Positions 23,748 to 25,652 of a DNA stretch of 64,000 nt are shown one piece after another. Within the stretch, counting starts at the first letter, position 1, and each line of letters begins with the position of its first letter. A program made the translations under genes and the position numbers. A model generated the notes under the pieces. It did no database searches. It saw only the letters and a program-made list of their open reading frames with translations, and had not been told where the DNA came from. The stretch is from contig OX597828.1 in the NCBI GenBank assembly GCA_951406725.2, forward strand, positions 47,492,001-47,556,000, read 5' to 3'. The DNA is from Octopus vulgaris (Eukaryota).

Positions 23748-23825
<78 letters not shown>

Positions 23826-24046
23826 TCAATATAGGGTGGCAAAAAAAATTTTGTAGAATTCTTTTGCCACCAGCGGCCTAGTAGGAAAAAATTAAATAGT
23901 CATAAACCATTTTTACGTTCAACATCACAATCAAGGAACGGCCATAATAGGCCATTCACCCACTAGAAATAACAGCCAAAAGCTTTAACCGCAAAATAAC
24001 ATTAATTCCGTAAACCAGGAGAAAATTGAAAAACTTTTACCCTGTA

Positions 24047-24153
24047 ATTTCTTAGACGATGCACCGTTTCATCTACCGTTTAATGGTAAACTAACCTGAT
24101 TAAATTAAATCAAGCCAATCCATCATAGGCCCTTAGACTCATCAGTAAGAAAT
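24047..24153 (-). ncRNA. Type I hammerhead ribozyme (copy 1 of 4)
   Basis: Reverse complement of the same motif, with one substitution in the stem II extension. Confidence 0.8.
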
Positions 24154-24537
24154 AGCCAAGTCGGAACAGATATTTTTCACGAGGCATTCCTCTTGCTACC
24201 TCGGCAATATCTGACCTAAAATTTTCAAATCGTCGCACTCGCGCCAAATTTATCGGCAGCAAATAAATATAAGCCACCGATTCCATTACGGAACTAACCA
24301 GAAAATTCATAATTAATCAATATAGGGTGGCAAAAAAAAATTTGTAGAATTCTTTTGCCACCAGCGGCCTAGTAGGAAAAAATTAAATAGTCATAAACCA
24401 TTTTTACGTTCAACATCACAATCAAGGAACGGCCATAATAGGCCATTCACCCACTAGAAATAACAGCCAAAAGCTTTAACCGCAAAATAACATTAATTCC
24501 GTAAACCAGGAGAAAATTGAAAAACTTTTACCCTGTA

Positions 24538-24644
24538 ATTTCTTAGACGATGCACCGTTTCATCTACCGTTTAATGGTAAACTAACCTGATTAAATTAAA
24601 TCAAGCCAATCCACCATAGGCCCTTAGACTCATCAGTAAGAAAT
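24538..24644 (-). ncRNA. Type I hammerhead ribozyme (copy 2 of 4)
   Basis: Reverse complement of the same motif. Confidence 0.85.
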
Positions 24645-24861
24645 AGCCAAGTCGGAACAGATATTTTTCACGAGGCATTCCTCTTGCTACCTCGGCAATA
24701 TCTGACCTAAAATTTTCAAATCGTCGCACTCGCGCCAAATTTATCGGCAGCAAATAAATATAAGCCACCGATTCCATTTGAAAGATTTGAAAATTTTAGG
24801 TCAGATATTGCCGAGGTAGCAAGAGGAATGCCTCGTGAAAAATATCTGTTCCGACTTGGCT

Positions 24862-24968
24862 ATTTCTTACTGATGAGTCTAAGGGCCTATGGTGGATTGG
24901 CTTGATTTAATTTAATCAGGTTAGTTTACCATTAAACGGTAGATGAAACGGTGCATCGTCTAAGAAAT
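24862..24968 (+). ncRNA. Type I hammerhead ribozyme (copy 3 of 4)
   Basis: Stem I AUUUCUUA/UAAGAAAU; core CUGAUGA; stem II GUCUA/UAGAU with a long hairpin extension; GAAA; stem III ACGGUGCAUCGU; predicted GUC cleavage at 24960. Confidence 0.85.
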
Positions 24969-25351
24969 TACAGGGTAAAAGTTTTTCAATTTTCTCCTGG
25001 TTTACGGAATTAATGTTATTTTGCGGTTAAAGCTTTTGGCTGTTATTTCTAGTGGGTGAATGGCCTATTATGGCCGTTCCTTGATTGTGATGTTGAACGT
25101 AAAAATGGTTTATGACTATTTAATTTTTTCCTACTAGGCCGCTGGTGGCAAAAGAATTCTACAAAATTTTTTTGCCACCCTATATTGATTAATTATGAAT
25201 TTTCTGGTTAGTTCCGTAATGGAATCGGTGGCTTATATTTATTTGCTGCCGATAAATTTGGCGCGAGTGCGACGATTTGAAAATTTTAGGTCAGATATTG
25301 CCGAGGTAGCAAGAGGAATGCCTCGTGAAAAATATCTGTTCCGACTTGGCT

Positions 25352-25458
25352 ATTTCTTACTGATGAGTCTAAGGGCCTATGGTGGATTGGCTTGATTTAA
25401 TTTAATCAGGTTAGTTTACCATTAAACGGTAGATGAAACGGTGCATCGTCTAAGAAAT
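25352..25458 (+). ncRNA. Type I hammerhead ribozyme (copy 4 of 4)
   Basis: Same sequence as 24862-24968, 490 nt downstream; predicted cleavage at 25450. Confidence 0.85.
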
Positions 25459-25576
25459 TACAGGGTAAAAGTTTTTCAATTTTCTCCTGGTTTACGGAAT
25501 TAATGTTATTTTGCGGTTAAAGCTTTTGGCTGTTATTTCTAGTGGGTGAATGGCCTATTATGGCCGTTCCTTGATT

Positions 25577-25652
<76 letters not shown>

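Follow-up and report, generated by a model that had tools for sequence, protein, structure and literature searches.

Anatomy of a young non-LTR retrozyme family in Octopus vulgaris: two fixed, paired 3′ ends and a likely Penelope-type route of insertion

We analyzed a palindromic block located in a 64,000-nucleotide stretch of the Octopus vulgaris genome (contig OX597828.1, positions 47,492,001 to 47,556,000; this whole stretch is referred to as the window). The palindrome is composed of two arms, both pieces of a single tandem array with a 490-nt unit, placed head-to-head (5′ to 5′), and the element is a young member of a large non-LTR retrozyme family. The class of element is known, and the value of this family lies in its insertion anatomy: the informative feature, absent from an earlier note on this DNA, is that the two arms have different, fixed end points within the unit. 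We consider it likely that the locus is a young retrozyme insertion, generated by the trans-acting RT of a Penelope-like element (PLE), which copied one RNA from the two DNA ends of a broken (TA)n site. The copy number, TA flanks, geometry, paired ends, haplotypes and an excess of stops near the predicted cut are seen in the DNA, and the RNA and protein steps are inferred from them.

The palindromic locus and its hammerheads

Positions within the unit are numbered from u1 (24961), the first base after the predicted cut. The locus contains the following features (window coordinates):

23691-23820, no strand: left (TA)n tract, inferred target site
23821-24778, minus: left arm, 958 nt, about 1.96 units, running from u258 to u236
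23818-23821 (blurred by TA), minus: 3′ end of the left arm, site B (u236), abutting (TA)n
23835-23871, minus: 15-bp hairpin directly before site B
24049-24151, minus: type I hammerhead, predicted cut between 24055 and 24054
24055-24545, minus: predicted 491-nt monomer between the two minus-strand cut sites
24540-24642, minus: type I hammerhead, predicted cut between 24546 and 24545
24779-24783, no strand: 5-nt filler at the head-to-head joint
24784-25581, plus: right arm, 798 nt, 1.63 units, running from u314 to u131; its 3′ end is site A (u131), abutting (TA)n
24862-24968 (Rfam match 24864-24966), plus: type I hammerhead, predicted cut after 24960
24961-25450, plus: predicted 490-nt monomer between the plus-strand cut sites, the reference unit (u1-u490)
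25354-25456, plus: second plus-strand type I hammerhead, predicted cut after 25450
25548-25569, plus: 8-bp hairpin directly before site A
25580-25725, no strand: right (TA)n tract, inferred target site

The period is 491 in the left arm and 490 in the right one. Over the 798 nt common to both arms there are three differing alignment columns, i.e. a substitution (24123 versus 25382), whose counterpart is held by the hammerhead at 24540-24642 (minus strand), and an indel plus a substitution within one homopolymer. The arm alignment and four Rfam-matched sites confirm the palindromic block of hammerhead units proposed in the earlier note, including its almost identical arms of about 800 bp and its (TA)n surroundings on both sides; of the two leftward and two rightward copies counted there, the opposed orientation stands, while neither arm reaches two full units.

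The filler at the joint completes a direct copy of 8 bases from the adjoining arm and may be a templated insertion left as a scar of end joining. Fillers copying nearby arm sequence are present at the joints of the window locus, L034, L035 and L060; the products of polymerase theta likewise contain filler copied from nearby sequence.

Palindromes are a known artefact of long-read data, and no contig bridging the central joint was found among those listed for four public runs. Against a fold-back made during assembly speak the asymmetry of the joint (u258 versus u314, with 5 extra bases), the differences between the arms in length, end point and one base, and the fact that 73 loci with different joints obey one rule. 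We therefore regard this explanation as very unlikely, with next to no probability left to it.

The unit has 37% GC and folds more stably than 100 of 100 shuffled sequences (z -5.3). Its longest frame is 66 aa, and no RT plus GIY-YIG frame was found among the frames of the unit. The 66-codon frame (window 25195-25395, plus strand) starts at site B and extends into the ribozyme. Contigs of four runs presumed to be RNA cover the unit with variant letters, and none of the listed holders of the sequence is recorded as RNA.

Each hammerhead consists of an 8-bp stem I, a CUGAUGA/GAAA core, a GUC site, a near-palindromic stem III and a G.U pair opening stem II; these parts, and the predicted cut after 24960, are as the note had described them. 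The core (CUGANGA/GAAA/NUH), stems I-III and open stem I are those of the structural type I definition, and each window arm contains two complete hammerheads in tandem units. The search with Rfam Hammerhead_1 (RF00163) suggested in the note matched the whole model at all four sites; their score (22 bits, E 0.03) stayed below the 34-bit gathering score, for which reason a window-wide scan at that threshold had missed them. The low score is likely due to a stem II insert of about 58 nt with a 19-bp hairpin, a feature that had escaped the first reading. When forced, the active fold lies 3.9 kcal/mol above the minimum-energy fold. Rfam matches to miRNAs and sRNAs in the block were rejected, as they arise from the palindrome and are far below threshold.

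Comparison of the hammerheads in the collected loci revealed five versions of stem II: GUCUA/UAGAU (155 copies), AUCUA/UAGAU, AUCUG/CAGAU, GACG/CGUC and GGUGU/ACACC. The pair 10.1-11.1 is G.U in the window unit and A-U or G-C in relatives, stem I shows paired changes between families, and stem III is self-complementary through several versions. N7 varies among all four bases, the cut triplet reads either GUC or GUA, and the core is constant; these copies are related, and their numbers therefore do not represent independent events. The co-variation of stems I-III across subfamilies and a sister family, together with the constancy of the core, suggests that the ribozyme structure is under selection. 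In the sister family, the core is mostly CCGAUGA (U4C). A U4C core (CCGAUGA/CCGAAGA) is fixed in two sister retrozyme subfamilies (L114-L138; L183, L203) and in one Hydra-type family (L285).

The release of a monomer by transcription from either side of the window locus, as envisaged in the note, is doubtful. A transcript entering from the flank would copy the antisense arm first, and base pairing between it and about 800 nt of the sense arm could inactivate the ribozymes; flank read-through would thus give a hairpin of about 800 bp, and the window locus may be a poor source copy.

There is no sign of a host role for this locus. The palindrome lies about 29 kb downstream of the last exon of a paired-type homeobox gene (54343-54830, minus strand), whose tail we take to be OAR-like. 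The window also contains a near-complete U6 snRNA copy (12418-12523, minus strand; 105.5 bits), a fragment of a Neptune-type endonuclease end (15049-15195, minus strand), and four tandem copies of a 249-bp repeat (20887-21893; 93% matches), presumably a SINE-like family.

Family size and pairing of the 3′ ends

A degenerate 22-nt motif (the hairpin before site A), common to this family and its sister family, has 4,472 exact matches genome-wide, compared with 0 for the reversed control. The first 100 of these fall in 36 loci, which extrapolates to approximately 1,600 loci. The unit itself gave 227 matches in 40 scored places out of 908 candidates, and among those listed the identity is 96-100%. 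With these two counts, the palindrome and hammerheads of the window are not due to chance, and the copies are non-coding, low in GC and dispersed (37% GC, 66 aa, 4,472 motif matches), as in retrozymes.

We examined 113 loci in three sets: (i) set 1, the 40 top-scoring loci, including the window, from which three sister-family arms of <90% identity were dropped, (ii) set 2, the 36 loci of the first 100 motif matches, taken in position order, and (iii) set 3, 37 further loci with one haplotype marker. Set 2 includes several subfamilies diverging by up to 8.8% from the window unit, and each locus is internally within 0-1.7%, which indicates that the family is young and fast-changing. The sister family is approx. 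70% identical and has the same anatomy; the base of the 15-bp hairpin before site B is also kept in it.

The arms end at one of two places in the unit, site A (u124-140) or site B (u228-248). This is the case for 60/62 arms in set 1, 59/61 in set 2 and 57/63 in set 3, and in sets 1 and 2 the arms run straight into TA in 55/62 and 51/61 cases, respectively. Two arms are present in 73 of the 113 loci and are head-to-head in every one of these 73. The combination A+B was found in 65 of them (20/22, 24/25 and 21/26 in sets 1, 2 and 3), and A+A or B+B in none; the remaining 8 break the rule in that one arm ends elsewhere, in one case at a contig end. Minimal two-armed insertions of 72-79 bases, in which site A is still paired with site B, were observed in L200 and L205.

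The same genome contains autonomous PLEs, and in all 21 of their two-armed loci (Neptune, 3; Hydra-type, 13+1+4) one end is short and the other long. The octopus insertions display the signature of PLE insertion, i.e. a tail at one end, an inverted truncated copy and a (TA)n target. The strict pairing would add to published PLE data in suggesting that two start sites are shared out, one per DNA end.

It might be argued that the family is a dispersed satellite, expanded through unequal crossing-over and inverted by DNA repair, whose ribozyme is idle. Some long arrays (L059, L190) do contain partly shared variants, and local tandem amplification has been proposed (bioRxiv 10.64898/2026.07.22.740005). 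A satellite would leave the fixed paired 3′ ends, the 73/73 head-to-head arrangements and the stops at the cut site unexplained; the pairing, PLE and stop counts strongly disfavour it, and we allow it a very slight chance.

Templates, footprint of the predicted cut and the insertion mechanism

In 43 loci with at least three-fold cover, 171 variants are fixed (carried by every unit of the locus), 115 are singletons and 23 are partial, 8 of the last forming one block in L184 (set 1 alone: 57, 82 and 10, respectively). Six fixed variants are private to one locus (among 76 loci), four of them occurring in both arms, which suggests that new variants pass through a single unit that is then multiplied. 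Divergence within a locus (0-1.7%) is often no lower than that from the nearest other locus (0-2.4%), and a homogeneous source array can therefore explain most of the haplotype sharing.

In order to localize stops, arms were followed backwards from their 3′ ends to the zone u1-33, the first arrival being termed the first pass. For set 2 this zone was chosen with the data in view (the picture is unchanged for widths of 25-40 nt); for set 3 it was fixed beforehand. The tests were confined to arms ending at A or B above the identity cut-off (54/61 in set 2 and 55/63 in set 3); set 1 was left out, as it had been ranked for full-length units.

First-pass stops within u1-33 numbered 12/45 in set 2 (9.3 per kb, compared with 1.1-2.0) and 15/50 in set 3 (p 9e-8; 10.4 per kb, compared with 0.9-1.5 outside), and in the next 33 nt, 2/33 and 1/35, respectively. 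The pooled frequency falls from 27/95 in the first pass to 4/37 in the second (p 0.024); over all later passes it is 8/68, which is still raised (p 0.02). Exact ends at u1 were counted in 4 of 109 arms (p 9e-5). Arms also end there after one and three crossings (L335, L319), as do both arms of L045. Among two-armed loci with both arms reaching the zone, stops in the zone were shared by both arms in 7, confined to one arm in 2 and absent in 22 (p 1.4e-5); this is what copying of a single molecule by the two arms would predict. Most stops are at u7-u31 rather than at u1, and stalling at stem I could be an added source of these; such stalling would not favour u1 or the first pass.

The cut site is passed as many as 10 times by arms of these sets and about 18 times in L059, and 294 of the 296 detected unit joints are of exact length (the pattern used is blind to large deletions). 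The first-pass excess and the weaker excess in later passes point to mixed templates, namely cut monomers, some cut multimers and templates that are freely passed. In the window locus the cut site was crossed twice per arm, which argues for a circle or an uncut multimer as its template.

The preferred reading, insertion by a PLE RT copying one RNA from both break ends, would involve the following steps: (i) tandem copies would be transcribed and then cut by the hammerhead, perhaps as a dimer formed through the palindromic stem III, (ii) some monomers would be ligated into circles, (iii) the PLE protein would nick both (TA)n strands, one DNA end priming at u131 and the other at u236, (iv) on a cut linear RNA, both cDNAs would run off near u1, giving short ribozyme-free palindromes, (v) on a circle or an uncut multimer, the cDNAs would pass the cut site repeatedly, giving arrays like that of the window locus, and (vi) host end joining would fuse the two cDNA ends head-to-head. 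The active fold lying above the minimum-energy one, the sub-threshold Rfam score, the eight rule-breaking loci and the lack of a homologous PLE repeat among those searched count against this model. The young, non-autonomous, TA-targeting Penelope partner suggested in the note is supported in so far as the insertions are young, non-coding, TA-targeted and of Penelope type.

Two-ended PLE insertion could also dispense with circles, if the arrays were copied from linear read-through multimers (cut or uncut) of homogeneous source arrays, or if monomers were joined by template jumping. The raised frequency of later stops indicates that cut linear multimers also serve as templates, so that a circle is not needed for every array; the exact u1 ends after one and three crossings and in both arms of L045 point the same way, as does the frequent similarity of the nearest other locus. 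Moreover, uncut RNA is the main substrate of a PLE protein in vitro (PMC11167929). On the other hand, the six private variants fixed in all units would require a one-unit bottleneck followed by renewed multiplication, and template jumping fits poorly with the fall in stops between the first and second pass and with the exact joints. A route wholly without circles is in our opinion unlikely.

If the preferred reading holds, it may be an instance of a general PLE mechanism, which we put forward tentatively. One complex would hold one RNA and both DNA ends, each with its own start, and the state of the RNA (a ribozyme-cut line or a ligated circle) would decide between a short dead palindrome and a rolling-circle array; the enzyme would be of Hydra type, with no remaining homology. 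One fixed start per DNA end would explain both the tail and the inverted copy.

The autonomous PLEs of this genome include young, intact Neptune-type elements, which have a 781-aa RT plus GIY-YIG frame, a tail of 35 nt and UUGAUAA as a minimal motif. Hydra-type elements are represented by at least five families (L234, L285, L291, L296, L300) with long open frames of 778-1090 codons. The RW, DKT, CxxC and CxH motifs are present in the proteins of all five Hydra-type families, and CxCX5C in three. In four of five, the terminal-repeat hammerheads have a stem II region of 55-60 nt (none was detected in the 842-aa family), the tails are about 115-160 nt long (three families measured), and one family has a U4C core. 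In the young intact Neptune-type element at L104 (789-6010), an upstream 479-codon frame overlaps the RT frame, and the minimal hammerhead-like motif shows a U3-A8 swap. Initial assignment of the L123 protein to the Naiads was rejected, its domain order and motifs being those of Hydra-type proteins.

No terminal repeat homologous to the unit was found in two Neptune and five Hydra-type families by BLAST, shuffled pairwise (z at most 2.0) or profile tests. In the profile tests, the sister family matched older Hydra copies over approx. 30 nt near site B (about 0 bits), and the window unit had no match; a T-rich motif near site B, considered as a shared link to PLEs, likewise did not hold for the window unit. 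The sample covered these seven families. Naiads with a (TA)n preference are recorded for two Octopus species (PMC8557442). The long stem II, long tails and U4C core of Hydra-type elements match the design of the unit, and we lean towards a Hydra-type PLE as the mobilizer, with a Neptune or an unsampled Naiad as the other candidates.

The units could in principle be truncated terminal repeats of an autonomous PLE still to be found, and not a self-standing retrozyme. Truncated PLE ends look alike (L208, first taken for a fourth retrozyme family, was identified as a Hydra-type terminal repeat), and scoring covered 40 of the 908 candidate places. Against this origin speak the arrays of bare units, as many as 18 in L059, and the 66-aa longest frame; furthermore, in the 113 loci the arms run into (TA)n, the partner arm or an unrelated flank, and PLE fragments detected by tblastn in the flanks of set 1 and of the sister family are separate insertions where inspected. 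We judge this origin improbable. The short ribozyme repeat of L207 shares 71% identity with the terminal repeat of one Hydra-type family; this two-armed locus (4830-5405) has a TA tract in common with a Neptune end and is possibly a derivative of that Hydra-type family.

Comparison with known systems

Non-LTR retrozymes of metazoans and their proposed dependence on PLEs have already been published (PMC7229834; bioRxiv 10.64898/2026.07.22.740005). Our literature search found no paper on octopus retrozymes or paired start sites; the supplements of PMC7229834 and of the preprint were outside its scope and may list a cephalopod retrozyme. So far, mobilization of animal retrozymes from circles by PLEs has been argued from co-occurrence and terminal-repeat similarity. 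The present family yields counted predictions (two named starts, strict pairing, one template per event and a germ-line footprint of cleavage), its RNA of 490 nt could readily be used in the in vitro PLE assay already available, and its anatomy makes PLE and retrozyme mobilization directly testable.

The octopus element resembles metazoan non-LTR retrozymes in its tandem non-coding units with a type I hammerhead, low GC, apparent lack of LTR, PBS and PPT, strongly folding monomer and co-occurrence with PLEs (PMC7229834; bioRxiv 10.64898/2026.07.22.740005). The unit is not unusually long, as the note had supposed, since published units span 51-972 bp (Li, Clavereau and Pollet 2026, bioRxiv 10.64898/2026.07.22.740005). 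It differs in the approx. 58-nt insert in stem II, in G.U or A-U at 10.1/11.1 and, in the sister family, in U4C. At most octopus loci, two arms end at paired fixed points in (TA)n, an arrangement for which we found no description in the available text of these sources. In Xenopus, 24/57 families have a homologous PLE terminal repeat, whereas none was found for the octopus unit among the seven families sampled, and Xenopus dimers were cleaved in vitro in one of nine cases, eight staying uncut (bioRxiv 10.64898/2026.07.22.740005). Circles are known for metazoan retrozymes, and RtcB ligates other retrozymes into circles in vitro (Cervera and de la Pena 2020, PMC7229834), while for the octopus element they are a prediction from DNA. 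Dimeric hammerheads and close opposite-strand pairs have also been reported (PMC4209133). The plant LTR retrozymes, with a type III hammerhead in LTRs and with PBS and PPT, do not match the type I topology and tandem units found here.

With EN+ PLEs the element shares the inverted, 5′-truncated partner, the tail at one end, two internal starts downstream of the hammerhead and an AT-rich target (PMC8557442; PMC11167929). The inverted truncated copy and the tail are PLE hallmarks whose origin, like the way in which PLEs produce tandem or inverted insertions, is described as undefined (PMC8557442). In vitro, a PLE protein cuts and extends the two strands of AT-rich DNA, starting at two internal RNA sites between which the genomic "tail" lies; no difference in start site between the strands is reported (PMC11167929). 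In contrast to EN+ PLEs, the octopus element has no protein, its tail is 105 nt instead of 30-40, and its template repeats every 490 nt.

The Hydra clade (PMC8557442; L234, L285, L291, L296 and L300) has the same (TA)n target and a canonical hammerhead, and its members in this genome also share the pairing rule, the long stem II and long tails, one U4C family resembling the sister retrozyme. They show no significant sequence similarity to the unit, and their start sites are at other distances from the cut.

Finally, the proposed insertion is reminiscent of L1 twin priming, in which both DNA ends prime on one RNA to give a head-to-head product. In L1, one priming site is the poly(A) end and the other an internal site of variable position, whereas the octopus start sites both lie at fixed internal positions, and the same sequence can be copied into each of the two arms.
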